This document shows positions 10,377-38,450 of a DNA stretch of 64,000 nucleotides, in pieces. Origin of the DNA: a plasmid; the sequence record CP113993.1. One strand, written 5' to 3'. Below the pieces are notes generated by a model. That model ran no database searches, had not been told where the DNA came from, and was given only the letters and a program-made list of their open reading frames with translations. The position numbers and the translations under genes were made by a program. Every line of letters starts with the position of its first letter. Position 1 is the first letter of the stretch.

Positions 10377-10400
10377 TCTGCTGCTCCTCCTTATTTTGTT

Positions 10401-20140: not shown

Positions 20141-20623
20141 TTAAATCTTGTAGAACAATGTATTTGGCGCAATGGGAGACTGAACAAAGCCAAAGTATTC
20201 ATAGAATGTTTTCGCCTGTTCATCAATAGCATGAACCATGATCGCTTTAATACCCACCTGGTCTGCCAGGTTAGATACCCGTGTTACAGCATCATTAAGC
20301 AGCCATTTTCCAAAACTATGCCCTTGAGTACACTCATCAACAGCAAGACGTCCCAGCAAAACAACCGGAACAGGATCGGGCATATTCTGGCGTAAACTGC
20401 GACCTAAACTGGCATGACTTACAGACCCCGTCGCAATAGAGTAATATCCCACTACTCGCTTTGTGCCTTCAGGGCAGATAACAAATGTACGGGAGGCATT
20501 GAGGTATTGGTTCTTCATCGCTCTGCGGCGAAGCCAGTCACTGAGCACATCATTCCCGCAATCAAACTGTTGAAGATAGTGTTCCTCGTTTAGCAACTCC
20601 GGTGCAGTAACACTTATTTCCAT
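20141..20623 (-). CDS. GNAT-family acetyltransferase toxin (TacT/AtaT-like) of type II TA system
   Basis: 160 aa; acetyl-CoA-binding-like core (GRLAVDECTQGHSFGKWLLNDAV), 10-bp overlap with upstream DUF1778 antitoxin. Confidence 0.7.
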   Translation of the reverse strand: MEISVTAPELLNEEHYLQQFDCGNDVLSDWLRRRAMKNQYLNASRTFVICPEGTKRVVGYYSIATGSVSHASLGRSLRQNMPDPVPVVLLGRLAVDECTQGHSFGKWLLNDAVTRVSNLADQVGIKAIMVHAIDEQAKTFYEYFGFVQSPIAPNTLFYKI

Positions 20624-20898
20624 TCAGGTTTCACATCCATCAGGCGCTGACGACCTTCAGTATTCTGTACAGGAGCTTCAAGTTGTTTAATAAAAGCCTG
20701 ATAGCGGGCATCATCCAGAACAAAAACGCGTTGATCCAGAATGATATTCTGGGCCTCGCTCACAGCCTTTTCTATGATGAAGTCGGTACGGTTTTTACTG
20801 ACCAGGCTCGCTGCATAATCAATCACAGCACGTTCCTCATCAGTAGCCCGTATATTTATTTGTTTATTACGCACAGATTTGCGGATTGTAGTTTGCAT
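20614..20898 (-). CDS. DUF1778 (TacA-like RHH) antitoxin
   Basis: start at internal Met MQTTIRK preceded by GGAGG RBS; INIRATDEERAVIDYAASL is RHH-like; N-terminal region negative-regulator-like. Confidence 0.65.
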   Translation of the reverse strand: MQTTIRKSVRNKQINIRATDEERAVIDYAASLVSKNRTDFIIEKAVSEAQNIILDQRVFVLDDARYQAFIKQLEAPVQNTEGRQRLMDVKPEWK

Positions 20899-20911
20899 GG
20901 CTCCTCCGGAA

Positions 20912-20966
20912 GGTAACAAATTGCTATACATAGACTATAGAGCCATTGGTAACAAATTGCTATACA
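20912..20966. promoter_or_regulatory. 19-bp perfect direct repeat (GGTAACAAATTGCTATACA x2) immediately 5' of the antitoxin gene; probable TA operator
   Basis: copies at 20912-20930 and 20948-20966. Confidence 0.5.
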
Positions 20967-21185
20967 AAAAATCAGATTTACATCCGTACAAAACTAATTT
21001 TTATCGAAAGCGCGGAAGATGACTATTACCACACTATCAAGCCGTGAACTGAATCAGGATATTACCCGAGCCAAAAACAGGGCATTGAGATACTCAGCCT
21101 GTTCGGAAGTGGGGTAAATGCGTATTTTGGTCGCTCTTAACATAGTCAGCGCTCATTGCTATAGACTTTTTATGTTAACGCCGGA

Positions 21186-21464
21186 ATGATTTTTTTTAAA
21201 GCCCTTCAGGCTTTTCCGCCTTTCCTCCCCGGCCACATTGGGCGAGGGTTCTCGGCAGGTCTTGCTGAGTTTTCCGGCAGAACGCTACCCGTTGATACTG
21301 CTGTAGCCCTACGTTGTGCCAGATTACACGTATCAGATAAACGCGGTGAGCGTGACGCTTTTATCGCAGCTACGGCACTTGTACACGGTATGACAGTCGT
21401 TACCAGGAACATAGCTGATTTCGAGACAACAGGAGTGGCGATTGTTAATCCGTGGATTTACTGA
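21186..21464 (+). pseudogene. C-terminal fragment of a PIN-domain VapC toxin
   Basis: DAFIAATALVHGMTVVTRNIADFETTGVAIVNPW is the conserved VapC C-terminus; no PIN N-terminus or vapB upstream. Confidence 0.5.
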
Positions 21465-21685
21465 TCTCCTGCCGCTATCATTATTCAGCGCCCTCACTAT
21501 GTGATCACTATAGGCTTGAACTACATTATCCAGCCGGCGTTCTTCTACCTGTACTTTTTCACACTGGAAATCTTCCAGATTCACCGTCTCCCCGAATGAT
21601 CTTCCGACCTCTTTCACCTTAAAAAATTATCCGCCGGACATCCATGCCCGCCCCCTGGTATTCGATTTTCATAACGGCATCTGCA

Positions 21686-22021
21686 TCAGTGTAACTGCGG
21701 GTGTTTTGCCCGCTCAGCGCAACATTCAGGGCACTCACAGGGTTCCTCCATTTCTTTGCGTACGTTCTCCAGCCAGGCAATAAACTCAGGCGGCACATCC
21801 CTCATCCGCAAAATTTCACTGGTGGCAAGCAGGGATGAATCCGTCAGTCCTGCCGGGCCATCCAGATACAGCGAAAGGAATCGGTTAATATCCCGTTCCG
21901 TCCGGCTAACCAGCGCGGCGATAACCAGCGGCACACCATTTTCCACGCAAACGTCGTGAAGTTGTCTGATTAGCGACTCAATTTTGTCAACGGCTTCCGG
22001 CAATGTGTTGATATCCTTCAT
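21686..22021 (-). CDS. hypothetical protein (111 aa, Cys-rich C-terminus CECPECC)
   Basis: clean ORF with coding-like composition; no recognisable family. Confidence 0.3.
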   Translation of the reverse strand: MKDINTLPEAVDKIESLIRQLHDVCVENGVPLVIAALVSRTERDINRFLSLYLDGPAGLTDSSLLATSEILRMRDVPPEFIAWLENVRKEMEEPCECPECCAERAKHPQLH

Positions 22022-23059
22022 AACTGTAACTCCTGTAATTCGATTTTCATGCAGATTTAGCTTCCTGGTAATTCCCCCGATAAAATGCCAGTACGCGCTG
22101 CATCACCTCGCTGTTCCTGCACTCCTGGCCAATATTATTTTTGCGTCGGTCACAGGCACACATTCCGTCACCCAATATTTCCTGACGGGATTTAGCCTGC
22201 CTGATCAGTTCTTTCTGTTTTGCCTGTTTTGCCTGTTTTGTCCGCTTGTTATTCCAGGCAGGGAAAGCCTGATCTGACGTAAAAACACCGAGCCCTGGGG
22301 CCAGATACATATCACCACAGCTCAGCAAGCCTGACAGGCAACGACGGTGTGTTCCATTATATTCCTGTCACTCTCTGCAGTTGTCCTGTCGTCATGCGCC
22401 CGTTTTTATGTACTCACTCAGTTATACACTGTTGTACTTTCTTCCGATGCTCCGGTGTGTAAGGCACTGCCATTAAATACTTCATCAAAAAATACCCCAC
22501 AACCTTTGTATCATCCTGTCGCTGTAAGTTGTTTCCAACAAACGCAATATTCATGGCTATGTCCCGAAATGTGTTCAGATAGCGCAGGCTTCGGGTTTGG
22601 CTCATCCTGCTCTGTAATGCAATGCACCGGGTACGGTTTCCATCAAATCCCCCTGTTAAATTTTTTGATATTGTTTCACGTTTTTCCGCCTGCTTTCCCA
22701 GCCCAAAATCACCCAGCGACTGCCGTTTATCCGAAAGCGATCAGTTCCCCCCTCAACGGCCAGTTTTTTCAGTCTGTCGGAATTCAGGTTGGTCAGTATC
22801 CACAGCCTTCATCGACGCGGTTTGCCTGTCAACAATCTGGTTCAGGAAGATGAACTCGTTTTTCGTATCGCGCTGCATACCAACCTCGTCGAGCCCCAGC
22901 AGGTCAACATCGCAAAGTCCGGCAGGAATGTTCCCTCGAATTTGCCCACGTCATGGCAGGCACGCTACCGCACGCCTCCGTACAGCCGTATGGTTACCCT
23001 GCGTACACCGGAGGTTTTTGTGGGTTATACGGGTTTTAACGGGGCGGAGAAGGGGCGGG

Positions 23060-23365
23060 TTAACGTTTCCGGGACTGAGAGGCGATTTTCCGGGCGGTGT
23101 GGAGTACCCGCAGGATACGTACATGCTCTTTTTCGGCTACATAGACGATGATGAACGGGAAGTGAGGCACCACAAGCTTACGCTGATTCTCCAGCCTCCC
23201 GGCCTTTACCCCAGCCAGCGGGTTTTCCTCCAGGATACCCGTCATGCCCGCCAGACGGTCGTCTGCGGCTATGGCAACCTCATCCCCGGCTTCCCGGTTC
23301 AGGTACAGGAAGATGTCTTCCCTGTCCCTCTGTGCGCGCTTTTCCCATTCAACCCTGACCGTCAC
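23060..23365 (-). CDS. parE: ParE/RelE-family toxin
   Basis: 101 aa; typical ParE features (DIFLYL...VKAGRLENQRKLVVPHFPFIIVYVAEKEHVRILRVLH); 4-bp overlap with upstream antitoxin. Confidence 0.7.
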   Translation of the reverse strand: MTVRVEWEKRAQRDREDIFLYLNREAGDEVAIAADDRLAGMTGILEENPLAGVKAGRLENQRKLVVPHFPFIIVYVAEKEHVRILRVLHTARKIASQSRKR

Positions 23366-23652
23366 AGCCTGCCCCGCATGGCCTGTTGTTTCAGCGTGTT
23401 CATCCTGTTTTCCATTTCATCGTGGCCGATATACTCGCCTTCACCGGCATCATAGCGGCTGAATGCCTGAGCTATCTGCTCTTCCAGCCAGTCTTCATGT
23501 ACGCTGCTCTGATAGCGGCGTTCTTCTTCTGCCAGCTCTTCGGCACGCTGGCGCATCAGCTCTGTCAGGCTCACCTGCTGACGCTCTGCTGCCTGCATGG
23601 CCAGTCGTTTGGTTTCTTCAGCTATCCGGAAGTGGATCGTACTGCTCATCAT
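23362..23652 (-). CDS. parD: ParD-like RHH antitoxin
   Basis: start at internal Met with GGAGGG RBS; MSSTIHFRIAEETKRLAMQAAERQQVSLTELMRQRA is RHH-like. Confidence 0.6.
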   Translation of the reverse strand: MMSSTIHFRIAEETKRLAMQAAERQQVSLTELMRQRAEELAEEERRYQSSVHEDWLEEQIAQAFSRYDAGEGEYIGHDEMENRMNTLKQQAMRGRL

Positions 23653-24372
23653 TCCCTCCACATGTGGTGTCGTTTGTGTTGTCATTATGAACGGTATATC
23701 CCGTTATGTCATCCAGGGTTTCCCGTTCTGCCGGATGTGTGCTGGCGTGAACCGCCTGAAGCGCCCGGACCGACACCTGCGTATAGATCTGCGTGGACTC
23801 CACGCTGGCATGACCCCGCATCGCCTGTATCCACCGCAGATCTGCACCATTCTCCAGCATCTGTGTCGCCATCGCGTGCCGGAACAGGTGGCAGCTCCCG
23901 TGCCCAACCAGGCCGGAGGCTTTCATATAGTGGCTGACGATGTTGGTGATGCCGTTCGGCCCCACACCCCCTCCACGACGTCCAGCGCCACGAACAGCGC
24001 CTTACAGTGCGGATTAACCAGCAACTGCGGTCTTAGCTGATGCAGATAATGCTGTACCCACCACAGCGCACGCTCACCCACCGGCACCACCCGGTCCTGT
24101 TTCCCCTTTCCCTGTACGATAGTCAGGATACGACGGTTCGCATCCACGCTGAACACGTCAAGACCCGCCGCCTCACTCCTGCGTACGCCCGTTGACCACA
24201 GCAGCTCCATCAGCACCCGGTCACGAATACCCGCAGGCGTGGTCAGGTCCGGCAGTGCCAGTACCTGCTCCACTTCATCCACGCTAAGGATATACCGTGG
24301 CAGGCACTTCTCCAGCCTCGGCAGCTCAAGGTCTGCCGCCGGGTTGGCCAGTATCAGGTTCTGTCGGGTCAT
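23618..24372 (-). pseudogene. tyrosine site-specific recombinase (plasmid ResD/Rsd/XerD-like resolvase) split by a frameshift
   Basis: ORF 23923-24372 carries the N-terminal/core-binding part (GIRDRVLMELLWSTGVRRSEAAGL); ORF 23618-23965 carries catalytic HxxR...Y box (GSCHLFRHAMATQMLENGADLRWIQAMRGHASVESTQIYTQV). Confidence 0.6.
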
Positions 24373-24594
24373 CCAGTGGAGCCAGACCTGAAGCGGCTGT
24401 AAGGCCGTACGCTGGGTCCGGGTGGTCAGCGGGGCACCATTACGTTTACGGTACTGGTACAGATGCCGCTGGTGATGCCTCTATACCGGAATCTATTGCA
24501 GTCCCCATGTGAACATCCGGTGAAGTCATCTTCACAGGAGTTTTCAGTCAGTTAGCATTACCGACATCCATTCACCGACTTACCGGAGGAACCG

Positions 24595-24924
24595 ATGTCA
24601 AAACACCGATGGTCCATTGAACAGAAAAGGCAGCACGTTGCCGCCTGGCGCACCAGCGGCCTTACACGCCAGCAATACTGTGAACTCAACGATATCCCCT
24701 TCAAATCACTTCGCGAATGGCCGAAGGATGTCGCAAAAGCTGAACGTCGGGCTAATGACCCCACCATTCTTCCCGTTCAGATTGCGCCAACACTGCAGGC
24801 TGATACTCCACCGCCCGTCACAAACGAGCCGGTTACACTCTTCATCCCCGGCGGGATACGGATGTGCTGTCATCCTTCACAACTGACTGATGTCTTCAGG
24901 GCGCTCAAATATGCTGACGCCTGA
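24595..24924 (+). CDS. IS66-family accessory protein TnpA (orf1)-like
   Basis: HRWSIEQKRQHVAAWRTSGLTRQQYCELNDIPFKSLREW resembles IS66 orf1. Confidence 0.45.
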   Translation: MSKHRWSIEQKRQHVAAWRTSGLTRQQYCELNDIPFKSLREWPKDVAKAERRANDPTILPVQIAPTLQADTPPPVTNEPVTLFIPGGIRMCCHPSQLTDVFRALKYADA

Positions 24925-25055
24925 TAATGTTTTCCTCACTGTTAAACCTGTCGATATGCGGCGCGGCATCGATACGCTGACACAGTATAGACAGGATGAA
25001 CTCAGGTCGACGTGGCATGAGGGCGCCGCCTTCGTCTTTGTCAACAATCTATGGT
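24890..25055 (+). pseudogene. truncated IS66-family TnpB (orf2) N-terminus
   Basis: LTVKPVDMRRGIDTLTQYRQDELRSTWHEGAAFVFVNN parallels IS66 TnpB (ITDMRNGFNGLA...GHLFIFRGRRGD); homology ends where the IS110-family element begins. Confidence 0.5.
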
Positions 25056-25059
25056 CACC

Positions 25060-26430
25060 CCCATTTTTGCAATACTGATTTTTGATTAATGGTGGGCTTG
25101 CTTCAATCTATCCGGCGTCTGTATGGGCAAGAATGCCCGCGCCACGATGAGTTCCGCGCCTGATGCACCTGAAAAAGCCCTCGGCTTCAGTGAGCCATTT
25201 GTTGTCTAAGGTTTCTCATCAGGCCGATATGCCGTTCATGTCATCAATAATCAGTCTTCGCAAAACCAGATGGGTAACTACTGTTTAACTACTTAATAAT
25301 CAATCTGTTGATTCAGCGCGACATATATCAGGCCTGATATGCATTGTGATTCGTCGTGATTGCCCATGCTATTCGCGCCAGTTTGTTTGCCAGAGCGCAG
25401 GCAACCACATTCGAATGCTTCTTGCTGAGTTGCTCTCTGACCCATTCGGCCAGTCTGCCCTGCTGATGTTCCAGTCGCATCATGAACGAGCGGGCACACT
25501 GAACCAGTAAACGGCGGAGGTTTTTGTCGCCCCGTTTGCTGATACCCAGCAGAGTCGATTTACCTCCTGTACTGTATTGCCGGGGGACAAGCCCTGTGGA
25601 AGCAGCAAAAAGCCCTGTGGAAGCAGCAAAATCCCTGCTGCATGAAAATTGTTTGCCATCACCGAGCTGTGATGAAAGCAGACTGGCCGTAATCGGCCCA
25701 ACACCGGGTATTGTCATGATGCGTTGAGTTGCATCATCAGTTTTGATTGACTGGTTTAATTCTGATTCCAGTTCTGTTATTTGCTCAACAAGGTAAAGAT
25801 AGTGAGCGTGTAATTTCATCAGCAAACGGCTCAGATATTCAGGTATTTCGTGTTCCACGAGCACCAGGGGCAGCCGCTTAATGACAGTATCGCCTACTGG
25901 CAGACTGATACCAAATTCCAGCAAAAAACCGTTGATCTGGTTGGTCGTTTTCACCTTGTCTCTGATAAGTGATTCTCTGGCCCGATGCAGCGCTCGCATC
26001 GCCTGCTGAACTTCGGTTCTGGGCTGGACAAACCACATTGATGGTCGCGATGCGGCTTCGCATATTGCCTCAGCGTCGACAAAATCATTTTTATTACTTT
26101 TGACGAACGGACGCACGAATTGCGAAGAGATAAGTTTTGCTTCATGACCGATATCACTGATACGCCGTGCCATAAAATGCGCACCGGCACAGGCTTCCAT
26201 AACAACAACAGTGGACGGACATGTCGCCAGAAACTGCATTAGATTAGTGCGCGTGAATTTCTTACGCTGAAGCGCCTTTCCGGACTTGTCCTGACAGTGA
26301 AGATGAAAAGAGTGTTTACCGAGAGCGATACCAATAAGCGCAACGTTTTCCATGATGGCCTCTCCTGAAAGAAAAACATCCTGCCAGCATACCGCTCACA
26401 GAGTGGGGGTGACCATCTCATTAAGCCCTG
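25060..26430 (-). mobile_element. IS110-family insertion sequence (ends approximate; no inverted repeats expected)
   Basis: 341-aa DEDD transposase; bounded by end of IS66 tnpB homology (~25055) and start of P4-type integrase homology (~26430); ~270-bp non-coding flank 3' of tnp and ~80 bp 5' of tnp. Confidence 0.65.
25328..26353 (-). CDS. IS110-family DEDD transposase/recombinase
   Basis: N-terminal RuvC-like MENVALIGIALGKHSFHLHCQD, C-terminal Tnp domain (MTIPGVGPITASLL...VPRQYSTGGKSTLLGISKRGDKNLRRLLV); expected catalytic Asp of IGIDxGK is Ala here; in-frame 21-bp tandem duplication (FAASTGL x2). Confidence 0.8.
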   Translation of the reverse strand: MENVALIGIALGKHSFHLHCQDKSGKALQRKKFTRTNLMQFLATCPSTVVVMEACAGAHFMARRISDIGHEAKLISSQFVRPFVKSNKNDFVDAEAICEAASRPSMWFVQPRTEVQQAMRALHRARESLIRDKVKTTNQINGFLLEFGISLPVGDTVIKRLPLVLVEHEIPEYLSRLLMKLHAHYLYLVEQITELESELNQSIKTDDATQRIMTIPGVGPITASLLSSQLGDGKQFSCSRDFAASTGLFAASTGLVPRQYSTGGKSTLLGISKRGDKNLRRLLVQCARSFMMRLEHQQGRLAEWVREQLSKKHSNVVACALANKLARIAWAITTNHNAYQA

Positions 26431-26712
26431 AGGGTAATGGGGTATGACATAACCAAGGACGTCTGTAGTCATGGATTCCGGGCTATGGCATGCAGTGCGT
26501 TGATTGAATCAGGTTTGTGGTCCCGCGATGCTGTTGAAAGGCAGATGAGTCATCAGGAGCGTAACGGTGTACGAGCAGCTTATATCCATAAAGCCGAACA
26601 CTTGGAAGAGCGGCGACTGATGCTACAGTGGTGGGCGGATTTTCTGGATGCAAACTCGAAAGAAAGTACCAGCCCCTTTGAGTATGCAAAGATTAACAAT
26701 CCATTAAAATAG
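26425..26712 (+). pseudogene. 3' fragment (last ~90 codons) of a P4-type phage/satellite integrase
   Basis: HGFRAMACSALIESGLWSRDAVERQMSHQERNGVRAAYIHKAEHLEERRLMLQWWADFLD is the conserved tyrosine-recombinase C-terminus (HxxR...Y) of P4/CP4-57-like integrases; N-terminus replaced by IS110-family element. Confidence 0.65.
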
Positions 26713-27035
26713 TAAGCACTCCGGGCAGATTGTCCGGAGTGCTTTGAATGACGATTTTCTTTGGTAATGATGAAGAAGGTTGATGGTAAGGCAAATTATC
26801 CCCGCCCCTCATTAATACTCATGTAGTCAAGTCATTTATAGCTGGCATCACGGACTTCTGATCTCCCCTAGTTGCAGGTAACGACTTCAGTCCGCTGAAA
26901 GCGAAAAGCGGAAGTTCGGGAGGGTTGTGATCTACTTTTAACCTTTGTAATTTAGAAGTATTCTTTTAAGATTAATCCACTTCCCATCGTCATCCTTTCG
27001 GTGCCCGTGAAAAGCTTTTTTAAGGTTACTGCCTC

Positions 27036-29345
27036 ATGGAGTTATGGATATTTATAATAGCTATTTATTTGATTTATATTCTTTTTTTCAAAAAGAAGAA
27101 ACCTAAGTCCGCGGGCTCTTATACTTCCGCTCCTGTGAAAGCACCACCTAAAGAATGGCTTGCTAACAACAAAAAAAATCAGGCGGTAATGCACAACGAT
27201 GACAGCGAAGATGACAATCTGGCTACGTTTACACTAAGTGGCGGACGGAATGTCGAATACAGCATAACAGCCACTCAACGCCAGAATCTCTCAAAAAATA
27301 CCGGTGCTTTGGCTCGCTGGATTTTACCGGGAGAGGTGATCACAGTCGGTGGGGTAGAGGTTACCGGTGCCCACTTCTATCTTGGACAGCGTATGAAACC
27401 TGCCGGGCATAACTCAGGTGGTTATTATGATGATAGTAGCGAGGCATCGCTAATTGACGACACGCTTAAGATATACCCCACACCTTACATTTACGAAGAT
27501 AGTTCATTAGGGTATTGGCCCAGTTTTTCCTCACTTTCACCTGAAGCACGTGGTGCGTACCTGAGTTGGCTTGCCAGCGACAGATGTGACACTTCTTGCC
27601 CAATTGGTTACGTTTTTATTTATCTGTATGGTCTGGAAAGACGGGCGCTTGTTGACAGCAGGGACAACAATATATCTGACGATGAGTTCTATTCTCTTTT
27701 CAAAGAGATCTGCCGTCTCAGATCGGTTTTCAATGAAAACCGATCTTTCCGGAACTACTCGTCCCAGCTACTTGAAGCGATGTCCATTCTTCGCCCGAAC
27801 GAAAATCTTGCAGCAGCTCTCGTCAATGATTCGGAGTTCAGCAATAGAATGCAATTCAGGCTAATCCTGGCAAAGACAGTTGAGGCAGGAGCCCCGGTGC
27901 CAGCTGATCTGGCTCTGACGTGGGTGACAAACCATACTGAATACTCATTGCGAACCCCTGCCCGCCGTTGCGCGAAAGAATTTGCTGCACTTTTTAAACG
28001 GCGTTACACCCTTAAATACGGTGAAGGGATGGTAGTGAAGCCGAATAAAGCGCGTCTGCGTTTAGATTACACACCTGCAAGTCCCAGTTTGCGAGGTATT
28101 CGGCTTCCTGTTCCCGACTTGCCTGATCCAAGTGCATTGAAAGGCCCTGTTCAGCAGCTTATGACCCTTGCCGATATATGCACAGATGAACTAGATGCTT
28201 ACAGTCGTTACCTTGGTAGAAAAGGCACTTCAGCAAATGATACCGCTGCAATTTTGTTGCTGCCTTCAGAAATCGTTAACGAAAGCGCAGAAAAAATATT
28301 AAGTGCATTCAAACGCTGGGCTGATGACGCGATCCTCAGTAAGGGTGGAGTAGTTTCAGTTGCTGACTACTGGTCACATATGAATGCTACCTGTCCGGCG
28401 AAGATCAATAAAAAAGAGGCCGACTTGATGCAGGCCTTTGCACAGAAAATGGGGTACTGTCTGGCTCCTGACCCCTATTACCACCACGTAAAGGCAGATG
28501 TCGATGGTGTTCTTGTTTTATTCCCTGCAGGAGAAGGTGGACGCTTCTCACCTTCTCCTGAATTTATCACAGCTGTATTGACGCTCCGATTAGGTGCGGT
28601 AGTCGCCTTGATTGACAATTCTCTCGATCAAGCCGAACAGAAAGTGCTCGAGAATGCCATCAACAACAATGCCGGCTTCAGCGATGATGAAAAGCGCTCT
28701 CTACACGCATATTTAACGTGGCAGCTTCATACCCCGGCGAACATGACGGGAATGAAGAGCCGGATTGAATTACTTGATACTGCGGAAAAATCAGCTGTTG
28801 GTAAGGTTATCGTTAGTGTTGCTTGCTCTGATGGCAGAATTACGCCTGCCGAAATCAAACAGCTTGAGAAGATTTATACAAGCCTGGGGCTGGATCCCTC
28901 ATCCGTATCAAGCAATATCCACCAGCATTCCGCAACTGAAACTGCTCTCGTTTCATCTGTACCAGCTAATCAGTCGACGGCAGGGTTTACACTGGATGCC
29001 AACGTACTTGCCCGCCACGAATCTGCCACTGATGATGTTCGTAAATTACTGAACTCGATTTTCACTGAAGAAGAACCAGAACAACCAGAAAGCACTCCAG
29101 CCTCATTAACCGGGGAAGGGGGCCTTGACCCCGCTCATAGCCAACTTTATCGCAGGTTGCTGGAGAAAGAACAATGGTCCAGAAAAGAGGCGACAGAGTT
29201 ATGCAGTAACTGGAACTTGATGCTCGGCGGTGCGCTTGAGGTGATCAATGATTGGTCCTATGCGGTGGTTGATGCACCAGTGCTGGAAGATACTGATGAT
29301 CATATTTGGGTTGACCTGGAAATAGCCAAAGAATTAGAGGGTTAG
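27036..29345 (+). CDS. TerB-N/TerB-C domain protein with N-terminal TM helix; Shango SngA-like
   Basis: 769 aa; N-terminal hydrophobic helix; C-terminal TerB-like motif VSVACSDGRITPAEIKQLEKIYTSLGL; first of three co-directional genes with 3-bp gap to next. Confidence 0.55.
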   Translation: MELWIFIIAIYLIYILFFKKKKPKSAGSYTSAPVKAPPKEWLANNKKNQAVMHNDDSEDDNLATFTLSGGRNVEYSITATQRQNLSKNTGALARWILPGEVITVGGVEVTGAHFYLGQRMKPAGHNSGGYYDDSSEASLIDDTLKIYPTPYIYEDSSLGYWPSFSSLSPEARGAYLSWLASDRCDTSCPIGYVFIYLYGLERRALVDSRDNNISDDEFYSLFKEICRLRSVFNENRSFRNYSSQLLEAMSILRPNENLAAALVNDSEFSNRMQFRLILAKTVEAGAPVPADLALTWVTNHTEYSLRTPARRCAKEFAALFKRRYTLKYGEGMVVKPNKARLRLDYTPASPSLRGIRLPVPDLPDPSALKGPVQQLMTLADICTDELDAYSRYLGRKGTSANDTAAILLLPSEIVNESAEKILSAFKRWADDAILSKGGVVSVADYWSHMNATCPAKINKKEADLMQAFAQKMGYCLAPDPYYHHVKADVDGVLVLFPAGEGGRFSPSPEFITAVLTLRLGAVVALIDNSLDQAEQKVLENAINNNAGFSDDEKRSLHAYLTWQLHTPANMTGMKSRIELLDTAEKSAVGKVIVSVACSDGRITPAEIKQLEKIYTSLGLDPSSVSSNIHQHSATETALVSSVPANQSTAGFTLDANVLARHESATDDVRKLLNSIFTEEEPEQPESTPASLTGEGGLDPAHSQLYRRLLEKEQWSRKEATELCSNWNLMLGGALEVINDWSYAVVDAPVLEDTDDHIWVDLEIAKELEG

Positions 29346-29348
29346 TGA

Positions 29349-30665
29349 ATGTCTGTAACACGTATAAGAGTGAAAGAGCGCGACGCTATTATTCAGTCAC
29401 TTAAGTCAGGAGTAACGCCAAGGATAGGGATTCAGCATATCCAGGTTGGCCGCGTGAATGAGATAACCGCCCTCCATCAGGATATTGAACGGATTGCTGA
29501 TGGAGGGGCGAGCTTCAGACTTATCATTGGTGAGTACGGTTCCGGGAAAACGTTCTTTTTAAGTGTTGTGCGGTCTATTGCGTTAGAGAAGAAGTTGGTT
29601 GCGGTCAGTGCAGACCTTTCTCCCGACAGACGTATTCACTCATCGGGAGGTCATGCTCGTAATCTCTACTCAGAGCTTATGAAAAATATGTCCACCAGAA
29701 ACAAACCAGATGGCAATGCGTTACTTAGCGTTGTGGAAAGGTTCGTTACTGAGGCAAGGAAGGAAGCTGATGCGAACGGCTCCCAAGTCTCATCCGTTAT
29801 TCATAAACGCCTTGCTGCTTTGTCAAATATGGTGGGCGGATATGACTTTGCGAAGGTCATTGACGCATTCTGGCGCGGGCACGAGCAGGATAACGAAACC
29901 TTAAAATCCAATGCCATTCGCTGGTTGCGGGGCGAATACACCACCAAAACTGATGCCCGTAATGATCTCGATGTCCGAACTATTATCTCAGACGCCTCAT
30001 TCTATGATTCTTTGAAGTTGATTAGCCTTTTTGTCCGTCAGGCAGGCTATGCCGGACTTTTAGTTAGCCTCGACGAGATGGTGAACCTCTTTAAGTTGAA
30101 TAATACGCAAGCGAGAACAGCCAACTACGAACAGATCTTGCGGATCCTGAATGACTGCCTGCAAGGCTCCGCCGAAAATATTGGTTTTATCCTCGGGGGG
30201 ACGCCAGAGTTTCTTTTCGATCCACGTAAGGGGCTCTACAGCTATGAGGCGCTCCAGTCGCGTCTGGCAGAAAACCGATTCGCACAGAAAGCAGGCGTGA
30301 TTGACTACTCGTCTCCCACGCTGCATCTTGCCAGCCTCACTCCTGAGGAACTGTATATTTTACTGAAAAATCTTCGTCATGTTTATGCTGGTGGAGATCC
30401 CGCGAATTATCTGGTGCCAGATGATGCTCTGACCGGGTTTCTGCATCACTGCAGCAAAACCATCGGAGATGCTTACTTTCGTACTCCCCGCAATACCATA
30501 AAAGGTTTTCTGGATATGCTAGCTGTGCTGGAGCAAAACAGAATGATGAACTGGCAAGCGCTCATCGAGGGAGTGGCGATTGAAGAAGACAAGCCCAGCG
30601 ATATGGATGACACCACTGTGGAGGAAAGCGATGACGACGACGGCCTGGCGAATTTCAGACTATGA
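29349..30665 (+). CDS. P-loop ATPase (DUF2791/BrxD-like); Shango SngB-like
   Basis: 438 aa; Walker A GEYGSGKT, Walker B-like LLVSLDEM; 4-bp overlap with downstream helicase gene. Confidence 0.6.
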   Translation: MSVTRIRVKERDAIIQSLKSGVTPRIGIQHIQVGRVNEITALHQDIERIADGGASFRLIIGEYGSGKTFFLSVVRSIALEKKLVAVSADLSPDRRIHSSGGHARNLYSELMKNMSTRNKPDGNALLSVVERFVTEARKEADANGSQVSSVIHKRLAALSNMVGGYDFAKVIDAFWRGHEQDNETLKSNAIRWLRGEYTTKTDARNDLDVRTIISDASFYDSLKLISLFVRQAGYAGLLVSLDEMVNLFKLNNTQARTANYEQILRILNDCLQGSAENIGFILGGTPEFLFDPRKGLYSYEALQSRLAENRFAQKAGVIDYSSPTLHLASLTPEELYILLKNLRHVYAGGDPANYLVPDDALTGFLHHCSKTIGDAYFRTPRNTIKGFLDMLAVLEQNRMMNWQALIEGVAIEEDKPSDMDDTTVEESDDDDGLANFRL

Positions 30666-32884
30666 GCAGTGCCTACAATAGTCTCGATCCCCGTGTCCGT
30701 AAGTGGGTTTATAAGCAGGACTGGTCATCATTAAGGCCCTTGCAGGAGAGTTCTATTCCGGCAATTTTAGCCCGCGATCGTGATGTACTAATTAGTGCAG
30801 GTACAGCAGCGGGTAAAACAGAAGCTTTCTTTCTTCCTGCCTGTTCGGCGGTTGCAGATCTCACCGGTGGATTTGGCATTATCTATATCAGCCCGTTGAA
30901 GGCATTGATTAACGATCAGCACCGTCGTCTCGAGAGTCTTGGTGAAGCCCTGGAAATGCAAGTGACGCCCTGGCACGGGGATGTACCACAAAGCAAAAAA
31001 AAGAAAGCACGGACAAACCCGTCTGGCATCTTACTTATCACACCTGAATCACTTGAGTCTTTGCTCATAAACTCATTGGGTTGGCTCAAACAGGCGTTTT
31101 CTTCAGTGGCATACATTGTTATTGATGAGTTCCACACTTTTATTGGCTCAGAGCGTGGTATACAGCTGCTTTCTCTGCTTAATAGAATTGACCATGTGCT
31201 AGGACGCCAGTTAAATCCAATTCCCCGTGTCGCGTTGAGTGCCACGCTGGGAGAACTGGAAAAAGTGCCAGAACTATTGCGCCCGGATAAGAGATTACCT
31301 TGTGAAACGGTAACAGACAGTAATAGCACAGCCACACTACAGGTTCAGGTTAAAGGTTATCTTGAGCGGGAGCCCGAAAAAGGAGAAGAGCTCCAGAGCT
31401 CTGCCGAACAGCTCGTCTGCGCGGATATTTTCAGGCTCTGCCGTGGCGATTCCCACCTGGTCTTTGCTAACAGTCGAAAGCGTACTGAAAGCATAGCGGC
31501 AACACTGAGCGACATGTGTGAGGCAAATGTCGTTCCTAATGAATTCTTTCCTCATCATGGTTCCCTGGCCAGGGAGTTACGTGAGACGCTTGAAGCCCGA
31601 CTGCAGAAAGGGAATTTGCCCACAACCGCTGTTTGTACAATGACGCTAGAGCTGGGTATTGATATTGGTAAGGTGCAGTCGGTCATACAAGTTACACCTC
31701 CGCATTCTGTTTCCAGTCTGCGTCAACGTATGGGACGTTCAGGGCGGCGCGATTCCCCAGCGGTACTGAGAATGTTAATTACTGAACCTGAACTTACCGC
31801 AACCAGCAGCATTGTGGATCATTTACGTCTGCAGTTGGTACAGGCGATGGCAATGATCAGGTTGATGATCTCTAAACGCTGGTTCGAGCCTGCAGATGTC
31901 CGGCAGAAACATTACTCCACGCTGCTACACCAGATCCTTGCTATTACTGCGCAATGGGGCGGAGTTCGTGCCGATCAGCTCTGGTCACAACTTTGCCAGA
32001 CAGGTCCGTTCCGGAATGTCGATATAAATGACTTCAAAAGTCTGCTTAAACATATGGGGATATGTGGCCTGCTTACTCAACTTGCCAGCGGTGAAATAGT
32101 TGTCGGGGCTGAGGGGGAGAAGCTGACTAATCACTACACGTTTTATGCCGTATTCAATACACCTGAGGAGTTTCGAATCGTTACAGGAAACCGAACTCTT
32201 GGCACAGTGCCTGTAGACTCCCCACTTTTGCCTGAGCAGCACATCATCTTCGGCGGACGGCGCTGGAAAGTGACAGAGATCGAGGTTGAAAAAAAGGTTA
32301 TCTATGTTGAGGCGACTAAAGGCGGACAGCCGCCACTATTCAGAGGTAGCGGGATGTCTGTTCATGATGTTGTTCGCCAGGAGATGCTCGCTATCTATAG
32401 GGAAAATGATTACCGTATCGCGGTAGGCAGCAAGAGAGTCGATTATGCTGATGCTGCTGCCAGAAGCCTCTTTGCGGAAGGCAGTAACAACTTCCAACGC
32501 TACAATCTACAAAATGACTGTTTTATTGCCAGCGGTCAGAACTGCTACGTGATCCCGTGGATGGGGGATAAAATTGTCAATACAATTACGTCCCTGCTTA
32601 TACGTTGCGGCTTTAAAGCCAGTTCATTTGCAGGTGCGATAGAGGTAGAGGATTCAAACGTTGCCTCTGTTCAGCGTGCACTTAAGAAAATGCTATTGTC
32701 AGGGTTACCTTCAGAGTTTGAACTTGCTGCAGTTGTTCCTGACAAGTATCTGGATAAATATGACGAGTATTTACCAGAGTCTTTGCTTGCGAAAGGGTAT
32801 GGGGCAAAGGCGTATGATGTAGAAGGAACGTGCATCTGGCTGCAGAAACACCTTCAGTCGACTGGATATGTAGTCAGGGTATAA
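30662..32884 (+). CDS. DEAD/DEAH-box (Lhr/BrxHI-like) SF2 helicase; Shango SngC-like
   Basis: 740 aa; motif I GTAAGKTEA, motif II VIDEFH, motif III SATL, motif VI QRMGRSGRR. Confidence 0.7.
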   Translation: MSSAYNSLDPRVRKWVYKQDWSSLRPLQESSIPAILARDRDVLISAGTAAGKTEAFFLPACSAVADLTGGFGIIYISPLKALINDQHRRLESLGEALEMQVTPWHGDVPQSKKKKARTNPSGILLITPESLESLLINSLGWLKQAFSSVAYIVIDEFHTFIGSERGIQLLSLLNRIDHVLGRQLNPIPRVALSATLGELEKVPELLRPDKRLPCETVTDSNSTATLQVQVKGYLEREPEKGEELQSSAEQLVCADIFRLCRGDSHLVFANSRKRTESIAATLSDMCEANVVPNEFFPHHGSLARELRETLEARLQKGNLPTTAVCTMTLELGIDIGKVQSVIQVTPPHSVSSLRQRMGRSGRRDSPAVLRMLITEPELTATSSIVDHLRLQLVQAMAMIRLMISKRWFEPADVRQKHYSTLLHQILAITAQWGGVRADQLWSQLCQTGPFRNVDINDFKSLLKHMGICGLLTQLASGEIVVGAEGEKLTNHYTFYAVFNTPEEFRIVTGNRTLGTVPVDSPLLPEQHIIFGGRRWKVTEIEVEKKVIYVEATKGGQPPLFRGSGMSVHDVVRQEMLAIYRENDYRIAVGSKRVDYADAAARSLFAEGSNNFQRYNLQNDCFIASGQNCYVIPWMGDKIVNTITSLLIRCGFKASSFAGAIEVEDSNVASVQRALKKMLLSGLPSEFELAAVVPDKYLDKYDEYLPESLLAKGYGAKAYDVEGTCIWLQKHLQSTGYVVRV

Positions 32885-33182
32885 ATGACTTATTTATACC
32901 CTGATTTTTTTACTTCCCGGTGGACTTACTTGGCTTTAGTCCCGGAGTGTTGCCAGGAGTATCTTTATTATCTCGTCGGCGTTGATCCGGTTTTCCTGTC
33001 GATTTAGCAATTGGTTTTGGACCAGGTTTAAGACCCATGATAGTTATCCTTCAGAGATGTAAGAGGAAAACCCTCAGCATTGGTATATTAGATACTGAGA
33101 AATTTTTCAATGGGAGTGATCAACTGTATTAGCTCAGACCTGATCTGACAGTTACCGGTTATTTATACAGGTATCTGTCAGA

Positions 33183-33794
33183 TTACATCTGGCTTAAATT
33201 TTTCTCAGCCCAGATGCGCTTTCCATCAAGTAACGTTTCCATCGGCGTCCGGCCGCAGCACATTTTCCCCTGATGGGTTCGCTCATTGTTATAGTGAGCC
33301 AGCCATTCATCAAGATCGGATTGTAATGTATCAAGATCTCCATATAACTTTTTGCGGAACGTCACCTGATAAAACTCGTTCAGTATCGTTTTGCGGAACC
33401 GCTCGCCGATCCCGTTGGTCTGAGGGGACATTGCCTTCGTTTTCGTGTGTTCGATGTCATTTATCGCCAGATAAAGCTGATAATCATGCAGCTCCACTTT
33501 ACCGCAATACTCTGTGCCCCTGTCTGTCAGTATCCTCAGCATCGGCAGGCCCTGAGACTCATAAAACGGAAGGACACTATCATTCAGTAAATCAGCCGCT
33601 GTAATCGGCGTTTTGGTAACATAGAGCTTGCAGTGAGCCACCTTCGAGTACGTATCAACGAACATCTGCTGATAGATTCGCCCGACGCCTTTCAGGTTGC
33701 CCACGTAGAACGTGTCCTGTGACCCCAGATATCCCGGATGAGCGGTTTCAATCTCACCACAGGCTTCATCATCACTGGCTTTACGCTCCGGCAT
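33183..33794 (-). pseudogene. 5'-truncated DDE (rve) transposase catalytic domain (IS481/IS3-family-like)
   Basis: GSQDTFYVGNLKGVGRIYQQMFVDTYS...LTDRGTEYCG...ERFRKTILNEF integrase-core motifs; no HTH N-domain upstream. Confidence 0.55.
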
Positions 33795-34195
33795 CGGTTC
33801 ATAGTCTCCTATTGGTTAAAATAGCTGAAAAGGGTGTGTCAGAATCCTGCTATGCGCTGGCGCAGTTGAGTTTACTGGTGCAGTGATGTGGATTTCGTGC
33901 GTCACTTTCCCGCTAATTCGCGGTTAAAGTGACGCACCGGGCTGGCGCAGTGTTTGAAAATTACGATTCTGGTGCAGGTTTACGGTCACGCGTCAGCAAA
34001 ACCTGACGGCAATGCATGCCACAGCCCGTAATGTAAAAAGCGCTGATTGTCAGCAGATGCAGACTGGCCGGAATACTTCGGCGTGAAAGAACGTTAACCA
34101 GCAGGTTGGTACAGTTAAAAGGATAAGTGTGAAATTTGACCTCTGTCGCAGTCAACTGCGAGCCGGCGTTTGCGGAGGTATTCACCGGTAGGGTC

Positions 34196-34256
34196 TGCCA
34201 TCCTGAGTTCCTCAGGCGCTTCTTTCAGGCCATGAAGCATTTTGTGCAGGAGGGAG
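34196..34256. repeat. ~60-bp imperfect direct repeat, second copy at 35146-35206, bracketing the chpS-chpB module
   Basis: ccatcctga(g/t)..tcaggcgcttctttcagg(c/t)catgaagcattttgtgcagg(a/c)gggag in both copies. Confidence 0.6.
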
Positions 34257-34387
34257 ATTAACTCAGGGGGCTACAGTGCGAGAAGGAGAAACTGTTTTTA
34301 TCTGTAAAAAGATTTTCAATCAATTGTCGATATAAAAAAGAGAGCGCCGTATGTGACAGCGCCCTCGTTCAGGTTACATAAAAGATA

Positions 34388-34720
34388 TCAGCTCAGAATG
34401 GCTTCCAGTCGGGCCAGCACTTCATTTACGACAGCTTCGGGTATACGTTCCAGACGCTTACCATTCCGGGCACCCATATCAATCGTTCTGGGCTGGTCGC
34501 AGCGAATAACACCCGTTGTTTTTGTTCCCGCGCCGTCCAGGGAGACGGTAAAACCGGCTGTGCGGGCAAAGTCTCCGCCGCTGGTGACGGGAACGACAAC
34601 GGGTAACCGGGTGAACTTATTAAATGATGCCGGAGAAACGATAAGTACCGGACGTTTTCCGCTTTGTTCATGTCCGGCTGTAGGATCCAGTGAGACGAGC
34701 CAGATTTCCCCTCTGTCCAT
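34388..34720 (-). CDS. chpB: MazF/PemK/ChpB-family endoribonuclease toxin
   Basis: 110 aa; GEIWLVSLDPTAGHEQSGKRPVLIVS...RLPVVVPVTSGG close to ChpBK/MazF; adjacent to antitoxin. Confidence 0.8.
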   Translation of the reverse strand: MDRGEIWLVSLDPTAGHEQSGKRPVLIVSPASFNKFTRLPVVVPVTSGGDFARTAGFTVSLDGAGTKTTGVIRCDQPRTIDMGARNGKRLERIPEAVVNEVLARLEAILS

Positions 34721-34978
34721 TTACAGGATCTCCTTACCCACTGCAGGCGCATCCATCCATTCCCTATCCTCATCGCTCATTTCGGCGTGCGGATCGCACT
34801 GTGCCAGCAGTTCCTCAAGCGAATAACGGGGCCGTTTCTGGGGTTCAATAATCAGGCAGCCATTATCAATGGTCATTCCCACTTCGCTGTCTGTCGACAG
34901 AGCCAGCGTTTTCAACACGGCGGGAGGAACCGCCAGCATGACGGATCCGCCAACCTTTTTCAGACGAGTGGTATACAT
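34721..34978 (-). CDS. chpS: MazE/ChpS/PemI-family antitoxin (AbrB-type)
   Basis: 85 aa from internal Met MYTTRLKKVGGSVMLAVPPAVLKTL; SpoVT/AbrB swapped-hairpin motif. Confidence 0.75.
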   Translation of the reverse strand: MYTTRLKKVGGSVMLAVPPAVLKTLALSTDSEVGMTIDNGCLIIEPQKRPRYSLEELLAQCDPHAEMSDEDREWMDAPAVGKEIL

Positions 34979-35588
34979 AGAGCACCTCCGGATATTATAT
35001 TTTAATATAACATCAATGGCTGGCGGAGCGCAATTTTTAGTCAGATTCATTATGGTTTCCTTAGTGTAGCTAAGCGTAAAGGAGGCCTTAATCCGTCCTA
35101 AGACAGATCCGGCAGTTTTCAAAGGCTGCATTACCGGTAAAACGGCGACCATCCTGATACATCAGGCGCTTCTTTCAGGTCATGAAGCATTTTGTGCAGG
35201 CGGGAGCTTAGTTCGTGGTAAGAAGGCCGATAATAGAAAACTGTTTTTGCGGTTCAAAGGGTTATGGCGGATCAGATAACCGAAATGCGGCGCAGCTTCC
35301 GGCACGGACCTTCTCCGGAGAAGTATCAGCGATAGTACAAAGGCCATATTAGTTCAGATATGACACCCGGCAATTAGGCAAGAGAAAAAAGGACGAACAC
35401 GCGTTTACAGAGAACATATGACCTAAAGTAACAATATGACACAAGACTAATCATAACGTTACAAAATATATCATGCTCATTGATTTATAAAGAAAAATTA
35501 ACCACAACTATTGCAATGTCATCCGAGCGGCGTAACATAAATTGTTGAAATATTAGTCGCCGAAAAGTCGAGATAGATGAGGTGATAT

Positions 35589-38450
35589 GTGAATCCCCCT
35601 TTACTGCGTTCCTATAATGCCGTTATCAAACATACGTTATCCCAAGCAAAAAAATCCAGAACAACGAAACACATTGCCGGTTTTTGTCAGTTACAGGGGC
35701 CCACGGGCAGTGGAAAAACTAGCGCTCTCTACCGTTCTGGCTTCGCCGATAACGTCCCTCCGGCGTTGGAGACAATAAAAAAATCAGACTCTCAGGCCAT
35801 TCTGGTTACCCATCGCTGGAATATACTCCACGACATTTACGAAAAAACAGGTTCGCATGAAGACAGTAATGGAAAACCATTTAACGTTAGTGTGCTTTAT
35901 GCGCAGGATGAACAAATTGTTTCTGCAATCGAGGTTACGCCACTACCTCATGAGAAAGATATTTCCGCAGATTCACTCCCGGATCCCTTTAATTCCATCA
36001 ACGAACTTGAGGGAAAAAACTTATTTGTCGACCCAGATATTGCAGACAAACTGCGTAAGAATTGCAGGAATATCCTGTATATCAATAAATTATTGAAAGG
36101 ATACCCGGCACATTTACGTGCAGCTATCGCCAGTGAAAAAGAGGCGTTAATAAAATCATGTGCGGCAGTTGAGATATCGTTAATTCAAAATATCAAATTG
36201 CTGGAAAAAGAAGCCAGGAAGCAAAAAGAAAAATATGGTGAAGAACATGAACTCTTGCAGGCCGCCAAGCAACGAGTTGATGACTTCCGTCGTCATGCCT
36301 GGGTCAGACGCATTCTGCCCGCCATCGCTTGGCGCGACGAAAAACAACACCTGCTGATTATGACAACCCAAAAGCTCGTTTCATCATTTTACGATGGGCG
36401 GCGCAAAGTACGAATGTCCAGCAAAGAGCTGCGCAATTATGTCATTTTTATTGATGAATTTGATTATCAGGCTGAGGTACTACAGGAATATCTGGCGCAA
36501 GCTCAATGGGTTCAGGAACCGCCTGAATGCTTGGGGCAGTTACTCGAGGGGGGACGCAGATTACTGCAACGAATGCAGTATGTTGAAACAGCACCTGCCC
36601 CGATGATCCGTGAACGTCTTGGGACATTTCTTAACAAACTGGATGACGCCTTAAAAGGAAAAAAATTGATTTAACTCATGCCAGATCGCTAGTAATTCCT
36701 CTGCAAAGATATCTGGATAATAAACCCTTCGGTGAACATTATTTATTTCGCTCCGATCAACTGGTAACCAGTGAGCGCCTTATCATGCGACAGGCTGAAC
36801 ATGGCTACGAAATTATCAGACCAGATTCCTCATTTCAGGATAACGATCAGGCTATCGACATCAGTGATTTTTTGCGCCTGATGGAAAAGTTTATTCGAAA
36901 GTTCAGTCTGATGTTAACGGACCTGACAGCCAGCGAAGATGAAACGTATGAATACATCAAAAAGTTAACCCGACTTCTGTTCGACCCGGTTAATGACTAC
37001 AGACCGTCATATTATGGTTCAACCCTGCCAAATATGTCCCGGTTTTTGTTACCACGTACCGATCTGCCTGAACTGCGGGAACTAAGAAAAAGTAATATTT
37101 TGCCCAATACACATGCCAGTATTTTTGGGTTAACTAACTGGTTGCTGAAACAAAATGTTGTGGATACCGATATCGATCCATTACGAATACAGATCAAGCG
37201 TGCGTTCTTGCCAACAACAGCAGAAGGTTTACTACTGTCACTAGCCAGCCGTAATCTCGTTTTTGCACTGTCGTGCCACATCATATATTGAAAGAGCCTG
37301 CAACCACTTTGATGTCCGGTGGATAAACTCAGCCTTACGCTATATTGCAGAAGCACGTAACCCTACAGTTACGGAAAGCTTTCTCGGAACTACTTTTGAA
37401 AACCGACCTGATTCCTGGTTTAAAGAACCGATGCCCTACGTTCAGACCGATGATGACCTTCAGTTACAAAATACCGCGATTGAAGAAATCAATCGCAGCA
37501 AGGAAAGCATCAGAAAGACACAACTGAATACTGAGATCCATGATTTTAATAGAACAAAGAACAGCCCGCATTCAGCCGATCTTCTCGCTTCTCTGCCCCC
37601 CGATTTTTTCCAGAATGATGATGAACCTTCAACAGATTTCGAATCAGAATATCGCCAGAATATTCTACTTAAACTGCTTGATGTGCTGGATCTAGCAGGA
37701 AAAAGGCCTCAGCACCGAGGGCATCTGGCTTTTGTTAATTCCATATCTTATTTAAGAAAATGGCTAACCGCTGCAATAGCGACACAAAGCAGAGATTGCC
37801 TCACATGGTTAAAGCTGGATCCGCCTTTATCCGACAATCTTCTGCTGAAGAATTTTACTGATGTATTTATCCCGTTGACTATACATAACGAGCCCGCACT
37901 AATCTGTCTGTTAACCGCAGAATGTCAGAAAAGAAAGGGCTTCCGTGATGCCTATCAGGCTGCATTTGCTTCCCGACGTATTGTTATTGTGCTGACACAA
38001 ACTGCCTCTGCCACCAACGGTATAAATCTGGATTTCAGCCTGCCTGAATCCGGCAAAAATATGGATTTGACCTGTTTATATTTACTGGAATCACGGCATT
38101 TTTACTTTTCCGCTTTCCAGACCATTGCAGATAGCAATGATGATATGGCACATGCAGGCTTCCAGTTACGCAATCTGGAAAAACTACTACGAGCAGGGGA
38201 AATTTCACGTAAACAGCATCAGCGCTTCATCCTGCCACTGATGTTGAACAGGAAGAACGAAATCTCCCGGTTAAACGGAGAGTATAAGAGAACCAGCGAT
38301 TATATAAAAAATACGGCAGCCAATGTTCAACAGCAGGTTGGTCGTATTGAGAGAGCCTGGTGTGAAGTACCCAACGCTGAGATTCACCTTGATGCTGAAC
38401 TAGCAAAAGACCTGTCCCGCTTTGCTTCATTACCTATCTATACCCAATAA
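35589..38450 (+). pseudogene. large (~950-codon) SF2-helicase-like ATPase split into three ORFs by frameshifts at A7 and T5 homopolymers; candidate defence gene
   Basis: motif I GPTGSGKTSAL (res ~37), motif II VIFIDEFDY, motif V LTQTASATNGINLD, motif VI QQVGRIERAW; frame 0 to 2 switch at A-run 36659-36665, frame 2 to 0 switch near T-run 37260-37264; AT-rich (~40% GC) relative to surroundings. Confidence 0.5.

Follow-up and report, generated by a model that had tools for sequence, protein, structure and literature searches.

Assignment of an intact sngABC operon on a pESI-like megaplasmid of Salmonella Infantis to the Shango anti-phage system

Locus organization and system assignment

The DNA analysed here is a 64-kb stretch of the plasmid record CP113993.1 (hereafter the window), in which three genes, sngA, sngB and sngC, lie intact on the plus strand. 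They very probably represent the known Shango anti-phage system, carried by a pESI-like conjugative IncFIB megaplasmid of Salmonella Infantis and orthologous to the Shango of Escherichia coli KTE113. The three open reading frames (ORFs), taken from the ORF list of the window, encode proteins of 769, 438 and 740 amino acids (aa):

27036–29345, plus strand: sngA, 769 aa; predicted membrane helix at residues 3–17, TerB_N at 98–309, TerB at 519–624 and TerB_C at 644–768
29349–30665, plus strand: sngB, 438 aa; BrxD-like P-loop ATPase with a Walker A motif, GEYGSGKT, at residues 61–68
30662–32884, plus strand: sngC, 740 aa; Lhr/BrxHI-like DExH helicase of superfamily 2

The genes are adjacent, co-directional and in the A-B-C order of Shango, with a gap of 3 nucleotides (nt) between sngA and sngB and an overlap of 4 nt (ATGA) between sngB and sngC. 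An earlier description of this DNA, made from the letters without database searches (the sequence-only reading), had reported three coupled, co-directional genes encoding proteins of these lengths, and the locus is exactly as it described.

All three proteins were recovered with the Shango profiles of PADLOC. SngA matched the SngA profile with an E-value of 1.1e-101 (profile positions 12–524 of 528), and its Pfam domains TerB_N (2e-47), TerB (1e-7) and TerB_C (2e-27) all scored above the gathering cutoffs. SngB matched its profile from end to end (positions 1–439 of 439; 1.6e-185, 615 bits), as did SngC over positions 3–719 of 720 (2.4e-278, 924 bits). In Pfam, SngB belonged to BrxC_BrxD (PF10923; E-value 1e-149), the family that the sequence-only reading had named DUF2791, and SngC matched DEAD and Helicase_C, with a weak match to WH_Lhr; the SngC sequence contains helicase motifs I (AGTAAGKT), II (DEFH155), III (SAT193) and VI (QRMGRSGR355). 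Pfam and PADLOC thus confirmed the three proteins proposed beforehand, a TerB-N/TerB-C protein, a DUF2791/BrxD-like ATPase and a DExH Lhr/BrxHI-like helicase. The label "Shango-like" attached to them was right and can be strengthened, the genes being sngA, sngB and sngC by profile and near-identical to those of the validated type system. Two outcomes had been named as telling against that label, namely assignment to a different system and the lack of a TerB domain; the PADLOC and Pfam results favour Shango on both counts.

The similarity of SngB and SngC to components of BREX systems could also be explained by a leftover of BREX type 2 (Pgl), in which BrxD and BrxHI genes became joined to an unrelated TerB gene. 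This would account for the Pfam BrxC_BrxD assignment and for the PADLOC matches of SngB to BrxD (2.5e-43, 147 bits) and of SngC to BrxHI (4.6e-115, 384 bits). However, the Shango profiles scored far higher for both proteins (615 versus 147 bits and 924 versus 384 bits), and SngB reached 145 bits with the NCBIfam BrxD model, the cutoff of which is 350. Furthermore, no PglX, PglZ, PglW or PglY was annotated in the surrounding 30 kb (the neighbourhood annotation used throughout was that of the plasmid pN55391, over ~30 kb around the locus), and the flanking ORFs scanned yielded no BREX matches. BREX type 2 has a homologous BrxD ATPase and an Lhr-like helicase, but Shango has a TerB protein instead of the PglX methyltransferase and the PglZ phosphatase, and the same three-gene unit, alone, has been validated as a defence system. 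The profile scores and the lack of annotated pglX and pglZ led us to reject a BREX type 2 fragment, and we consider this origin extremely unlikely.

Some relatives of SngA are named "tellurite resistance TerB family protein" in RefSeq, and this name, together with the presence of a TerB domain, would be consistent with a tellurite-resistance or general stress module. However, no terZABCDE, terW or terY was annotated nearby in pN55391, in which only the TerB domain within SngA was found; TerB has the lowest score among the SngA domains (32.7 bits), the partners of SngA are an ATPase and a DNA helicase, and an orthologue of the system protects against phages. The likelihood of such a module is negligible, and the profile scores, Pfam and the neighbourhood annotation effectively exclude both it and the BREX fragment in favour of Shango.

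Features of SngA and SngC

Residues 3–17 of SngA (LWIFIIAIYLIYILF), which have a mean Kyte-Doolittle hydropathy of 2.8 and precede a KKKKPK stretch, form a predicted textbook N-terminal membrane anchor. The anchor was found in 104 of 106 full-length enterobacterial relatives of SngA, down to 51% identity. The PADLOC SngA profile, with 528 positions, begins to align at residue 41 of SngA; outside Enterobacterales, some SngA proteins may therefore lack the anchor. The sequence-only reading was correct that a membrane anchor is present, but it had singled this out as a noteworthy feature of the plasmid copy, which does not hold, since the anchor is also found in the KTE113 type system and in almost all relatives. 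A Foldseek search of the PDB with the SngA model returned TerB-fold proteins (2h5n and 2ou3) and weak winged-helix matches, none with an E-value of 1e-3 or below.

The solved structures closest to SngC were those of Lhr (5v9x and 7lhl) and MrfA (6znp), with profile E-values of 1e-32 to 1e-29. The likeness to these DNA repair helicases, Lhr and MrfA (YprA), consists of the motor domains and the weak WH_Lhr match that follows the motor. It is limited to residues ~6–373, the C-terminal 270 residues of SngC match no recognised family, and the NCBIfam Lhr-type equivalogs score SngC far below their cutoffs. When the C-terminal 342 residues were searched against Pfam with E-values of up to 10, WH_Lhr alone was matched, and in none of SngA, SngB and SngC did Pfam reveal a nuclease, toxin or pore domain. 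The AlphaFold2 model of SngC was too poor for use (mean predicted local distance difference test score, pLDDT, of 45), because all of the homologues listed were at least 85% identical.

The 3' end of sngC differs from that of its relatives. At 32858–32884, the window has TCG in place of the usual stop codon (TAG in E. coli 06-00048), and the reading frame continues for eight further codons (STGYVVRV) into the stem of the terminator that follows the operon; SngC therefore has 740 aa instead of the usual 732 aa.

Replicon and previous listing

The window was 100% identical to pN55391 (CP016411) in all the stretches compared (~10 kb). It was at least 99% identical to 105 records, including ~100 other S. 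Infantis megaplasmids, which, like pN55391, were 100% identical. The matching S. Infantis plasmids are conjugative IncFIB replicons of ~300 kb, which we take to be pESI-type from their size, replicon type and gene content, the name pESI being absent from the record annotations consulted.

Table S19 of Millman et al. 2022 (bioRxiv 10.1101/2022.05.11.491447) lists Shango instances that include the S. Infantis strains N55391, FSIS1502169 and CVM44454, with two contigs each, and S. Infantis strain 1326/28, with a single contig. Because the N55391 assembly consists of a chromosome and a plasmid, we infer that one of its two instances is the plasmid locus and the other is chromosomal, the match of contig to replicon being part of this inference. 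These entries suggest that the serovar has a chromosomal Shango besides the plasmid one. No mention of Shango on pESI or in S. Infantis was found in the main texts of the literature searched. The locus therefore appears to be an instance of a validated and already described system, apparently present in the discovery paper's own table, and is not new.

Comparison with other Shango copies

The Shango of E. coli KTE113 (SG206 in the table of tested systems of Millman et al. 2022, bioRxiv 10.1101/2022.05.11.491447; IMG genes 2538938181-83), which conferred phage protection when cloned, has the same gene order as the window copy. SngA and SngB are of the same length in both (769 and 438 aa), whereas SngC has 732 aa in KTE113 and 740 aa in the window. 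The first ~400 residues of each KTE113 protein were available for comparison, and over these the identities to the window were 96.5% for SngA (399 residues), 98.2% for SngB and 97.5% for SngC. The N-terminal SngA helix is shared (MEFWIFIIAIYLIYIIFFKKKK in KTE113 and MELWIFIIAIYLIYILFFKKKK in the window). The leader DNA is also common to the window and the KTE113 clone, from position 26899, ~135 nt upstream of sngA, but further upstream the two sequences differ. On the residues aligned, the pESI copy would amount to the KTE113 type system with a handful of substitutions; the KTE113 Shango is chromosomal, whereas the window copy lies on a conjugative plasmid.

A second validated system is the Shango of Pseudomonas aeruginosa PA14 (PA14_RS11735-45; PMC10250203), which consists of a TerB-like protein, an ATPase and a DEAD/DEAH helicase, belongs to the same PADLOC/DefenseFinder family and lies in a chromosomal core defence hotspot; its likeness to the window copy is one of description, not of sequence alignment. 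Johnson et al. 2023 (PMC10250203) reported that Shango reduced the efficiency of plating 10–100-fold in P. aeruginosa and ~10-fold in E. coli.

Plasmid-borne copies are numerous. At least 562 plasmids in PLSDB hold at least 80% of the cassette, and ~470 of the matching records are from Klebsiella, mostly conjugative IncFIB/IncFII plasmids. The Klebsiella plasmid cassette (e.g. NZ_CP018886, pIncF) matches window positions 26925–33124 at 84% nucleotide identity, with the homology starting exactly at 26925; it lacks the integrase relic found upstream of sngA in the window and sits between lacZY and repA. Shango has already been reported on plasmids of Klebsiella ST307 (bioRxiv 10.64898/2026.08.13.739500). 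The plasmid location to which the sequence-only reading drew attention is therefore true, but it is not exceptional, given the PLSDB plasmids, the Klebsiella preprint and the presence of N55391 in Table S19.

Sequence evolution

The ratio of nonsynonymous to synonymous substitution rates (dN/dS), calculated against the 84%-identical Klebsiella plasmid cassette, was 0.12 for sngA, 0.035 for sngB and 0.074 for sngC. These low values indicate strong purifying selection on sngABC across lineages, and thus real genes rather than chance ORFs. All three reading frames and the catalytic motifs (Walker A, DEFH, SAT and QxxGRxGR) are intact, and a strong terminator follows the operon.

The three proteins differ in their rates of change. 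Between the pESI and Klebsiella plasmid copies, SngB is 96% identical, SngC 89% and SngA 82%, SngA being the fastest-evolving. Across the same enterobacterial genera, SngC had 732 aa and 85–90% identity, and the identity of SngA fell to 51–82%. The divergence of sngA is unevenly distributed: positions 26925–27900, corresponding to the leader and sngA codons 1 to ~300, are ~70% identical in nucleotide sequence to the Klebsiella cassette, versus 84–91% elsewhere, and the synonymous divergence (dS) is 2.2–2.4 for sngA codons 1–309, versus 0.44–0.71 downstream. This pattern suggests that the module of SngA comprising the membrane helix, linker and TerB_N is mosaic, having been subject to recombinational exchange.

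Flanking features and origin of the segment

The operon is preceded and followed by the following features:

25328–26353, minus strand: IS110-family transposase (Pfam DEDD_Tnp_IS110 and Transposase_20), outside Shango and marking the left edge of the captured segment
26425–26712, plus strand: C-terminal relic of a P4-family tyrosine integrase (residues ~326–420 and the stop codon), with the HxxR and catalytic-Tyr region kept
26716–26742, plus strand: perfect 9-bp inverted repeat, GCACTCCGG...CCGGAGTGC, followed by TTT, directly after the int stop codon (read from the sequence)
26925–26953, plus strand: weak candidate promoter (TTGTGA-17 nt-TAATTT) within the sngA leader, which is conserved
32872–32906, plus strand: intrinsic terminator with a 16-pair stem and a T-run, overlapping the sngC stop codon; the top match of the terminator scan
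32885–33124, plus strand: conserved 3' tail of the cassette, with homology to the E. coli island and to the Klebsiella plasmids stopping at ~33124
33183–33794, minus strand: N-terminally truncated fragment of an IS481-family transposase (Pfam rve and rve_3), the right boundary and outside Shango

The two insertion sequence (IS) assignments were checked with NCBIfam: the IS110 gene scored 315 bits with transpos_IS110 (cutoff 140), and the IS481 fragment matched positions 118–283 of 284 of transpos_IS481 with 179 bits (cutoff 224). No notable direct or inverted repeats of the kind that flank composite transposons were found in 24500–34500, and no non-coding RNA was identified in the whole window by Rfam at gathering thresholds. 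The IS110 transposase ORF contains a perfect 21-nt tandem duplication (AAGCCCTGTGGAAGCAGCAAA, twice) at 25589–25630, forming an in-frame repeat of seven codons.

The sequence-only reading placed the start of a P4-type integrase remnant at 26425, which was correct. A tblastn search with the integrase of an E. coli tRNA-Phe island gave 91.6% identity at 26425–26709 (95 codons; 91% by BLASTP), and this full-length relative, which has the domains Arm-DNA-bind_3, Phage_int_M and Phage_integrase, shares 54% identity with P4 Int across 97% of its own length. The remainder of int was absent from the whole 64-kb window by tblastn, and the relic is a non-functional, dead fragment of P4-family ancestry. 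The inverted repeat that follows it is also conserved in the E. coli int remnant and is probably the old int terminator; the terminator at 32872–32906 is likewise conserved in the E. coli island.

Copies with ~95% nucleotide identity were found in 443 E. coli genomes and were nearly always chromosomal, and E. coli copies of the same clade occupy chromosomal positions in 2772 of 2789 places. In E. coli 06-00048, the copy lies in a tRNA-Phe island, in which an intact integrase, an ept/omp insert, an integrase remnant and sngABC succeed each other. The homology with this island extends from ~26419 to ~33124 of the window and abuts the IS110-family element on the left and the truncated IS481-family transposase on the right. 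From this comparison, the plasmid would have acquired Shango on a piece of ~6.7 kb derived from a tRNA-Phe genomic island of the E. coli type; with this piece would have come the last 95 codons of the island's P4-family integrase, and the piece would now be bounded by the IS110 element and the IS481 fragment. The integrase relic would thus be baggage of a chromosomal island.

The organization of the E. coli 06-00048 island is itself composite. Genes for a phosphoethanolamine transferase and an outer-membrane protein lie between the intact int and the remnant (locus positions 7028–11412), and the remnant directly preceding sngA is shorter than that of pESI (95 codons). This arrangement implies tandem accretion or replacement at the tRNA-Phe site.

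The sequence-only reading had interpreted the three genes as cargo of a P4-like satellite, in a hotspot next to int, and this part of it was not borne out. There is no tRNA or attachment (att) site in the window, and the rest of int is missing. No P4 satellite genes (alpha primase/helicase, psu, sid, delta or cos) were annotated near the locus in pN55391 or in the 8 kb that follow it in the E. coli island, as read from annotation without SatelliteFinder, and SngB had no match in 50,697 phage and satellite records. A P4 satellite hotspot was rejected on these grounds. Shango was found on five IMG/VR contigs, and in the two of which the flanks were scanned, these contained transposases and other IS genes, integrase pieces, an anti-restriction gene and RadC, and no satellite genes.

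Plasmid neighbourhood

The surroundings of the locus (~14400–24000 and 34388–35152, mapped from the pN55391 annotation) are dense in addiction and mobile-element genes. They include TnpB, an Rpn-family nuclease, Hha, and the GNAT/DUF1778, RelE/DinJ and PemK/MazE-type toxin–antitoxin pairs, with VapBC further off. The neighbourhood of Shango on pN55391 is a plasmid accessory region, not a classical defence island.

Three ORFs annotated as hypothetical (361, 168 and 395 aa) at 35589–38450, on the plus strand, are pieces of one decayed gene encoding a superfamily-2 helicase-like protein. They match residues 1–358 (48% identity), 406–566 (58%) and 566–949 (55%) of an intact ORF of 1293 aa from Proteus mirabilis H110 (NZ_OL790812 locus, 6001–9882), and an IS630 element (38454–39517, minus strand) cuts the gene off at about residue 949. 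The intact P. mirabilis protein has a weak PADLOC match to DdmD (3.9e-10). pESI thus bears the remains of another defence-like helicase gene, at a distance of 2.7 kb from Shango. The P. mirabilis locus (382–12308) comprises a WYL regulator, the mod and res genes of a type III restriction-modification system, the 1293-aa helicase-like gene and an ORF of 823 aa with no PADLOC match, and this five-gene array may be an uncharacterised accessory module of type III restriction-modification.

This setting bears on the role of the plasmid copy, which might serve mainly in conflicts between mobile elements, hindering incoming plasmids or conjugative DNA, rather than in defence against phages. Shango is found on conjugative plasmids in at least 500 records, it lies here near plasmid-stability and toxin–antitoxin genes, and it adjoins the wreck of a helicase resembling DdmD, which belongs to a plasmid-elimination system. 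Moreover, the closest Salmonella SngC is encoded by an operon located among conjugation genes (including the shufflon, TraF and TraG) in another Salmonella assembly. However, the sole phenotype for which Shango has been tested is anti-phage, and the E. coli copies of the same clade are almost all chromosomal (2772 of 2789, as above). We consider a main role in element conflict very unlikely.

Proposed mechanism and weighing of the evidence

TerB proteins have been suggested to act in membrane surveillance (Millman et al. 2022, bioRxiv 10.1101/2022.05.11.491447). Bunzi and Dionysus also have TerB-containing proteins (BnzA and DinB, respectively), and TerB has been proposed as a link between defence and the membrane; their partners are membrane or pore-forming proteins, whereas those of Shango are an ATPase and a helicase, and the SngA type alone has TerB_N and TerB_C. 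Hints as to the mechanism of Shango are provided by the retention of the anchor in 104 of the 106 SngA relatives, the rapid evolution of SngA and the proximity of SngC to the DNA helicases Lhr and MrfA. We tentatively propose a model, which we regard as possible but doubtful as a whole, in which membrane-tethered SngA directs the SngB ATPase and the SngC translocase onto phage nucleic acid. SngA would be held in the inner membrane by its single N-terminal helix, with KKKK placing the TerB_N/TerB/TerB_C body in the cytoplasm, and could act as a sensor or scaffold at the envelope, the site of phage DNA entry. It would recruit or license SngB, a BrxD-type P-loop ATPase, and SngC, an Lhr-type 3'-5' DExH translocase, and these may be loaded on phage DNA or on replication intermediates, thereby preventing the phage genome from being established or replicated. 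We favour such direct interference, possibly with a hand-off to host nucleases, over abortive infection, because none of the proteins showed a nuclease, toxin or pore domain; direct interference also fits the modest, 10–100-fold protection reported.

Several points weigh against this interpretation of the locus and of its function. Phage protection by the pESI copy itself is predicted from the KTE113 and PA14 systems. No mechanistic study of Shango was found in the main texts of the literature searched, and the mechanism given here is a proposal. The membrane topology of SngA is predicted from hydropathy rather than with a dedicated predictor, and the AlphaFold2 model of SngA is of moderate quality (pLDDT 65), with residues 19–192 disordered. 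Residues 470–740 of SngC may contain a cryptic effector domain. The perfect identity among the pESI plasmids reflects recent clonal spread, not selection, and no strong or convincing sigma-70 site was found upstream of sngA in a consensus scan.

The lack of a strong promoter would also be consistent with the plasmid copy being a silent or redundant passenger that hitch-hikes with pESI in S. Infantis. The two instances given in Table S19 for N55391 and other pESI strains, with one for 1326/28, suggest a second, chromosomal copy that could render the plasmid one redundant, and the surroundings of the operon are decaying, as illustrated by the int relic, the IS481 fragment and the broken helicase gene. 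However, the reading frames and catalytic motifs are intact and under strong purifying selection across lineages, and the leader that was sufficient in the validated KTE113 clone is retained from 26899. We regard a passenger role as unlikely.

Implications

The locus would be labelled by PADLOC or DefenseFinder, and its identification has little discovery value in itself. Its practical value, which is modest, lies in its host replicon: in poultry-associated S. Infantis, pESI is an epidemic megaplasmid that is conjugative and confers multidrug resistance and virulence, and an intact, transferable Shango on it bears on the design of phage biocontrol against this lineage. One further scenario, which we put forward as speculative and rather unlikely, is that emergent S. 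Infantis has a pair of Shango loci, of which one is on pESI and the other probably on the chromosome, that the plasmid copy confers transferable phage resistance, and that the mosaic N-terminal module of SngA could be an exchangeable specificity determinant sensing phage entry at the membrane. If this were true, the transferable resistance would matter both to phage biocontrol in poultry and to the spread of pESI. For the mechanism of Shango, leads are offered by the SngA anchor, which is conserved, and by the N-terminal half of the protein, which is mosaic and evolves fast.

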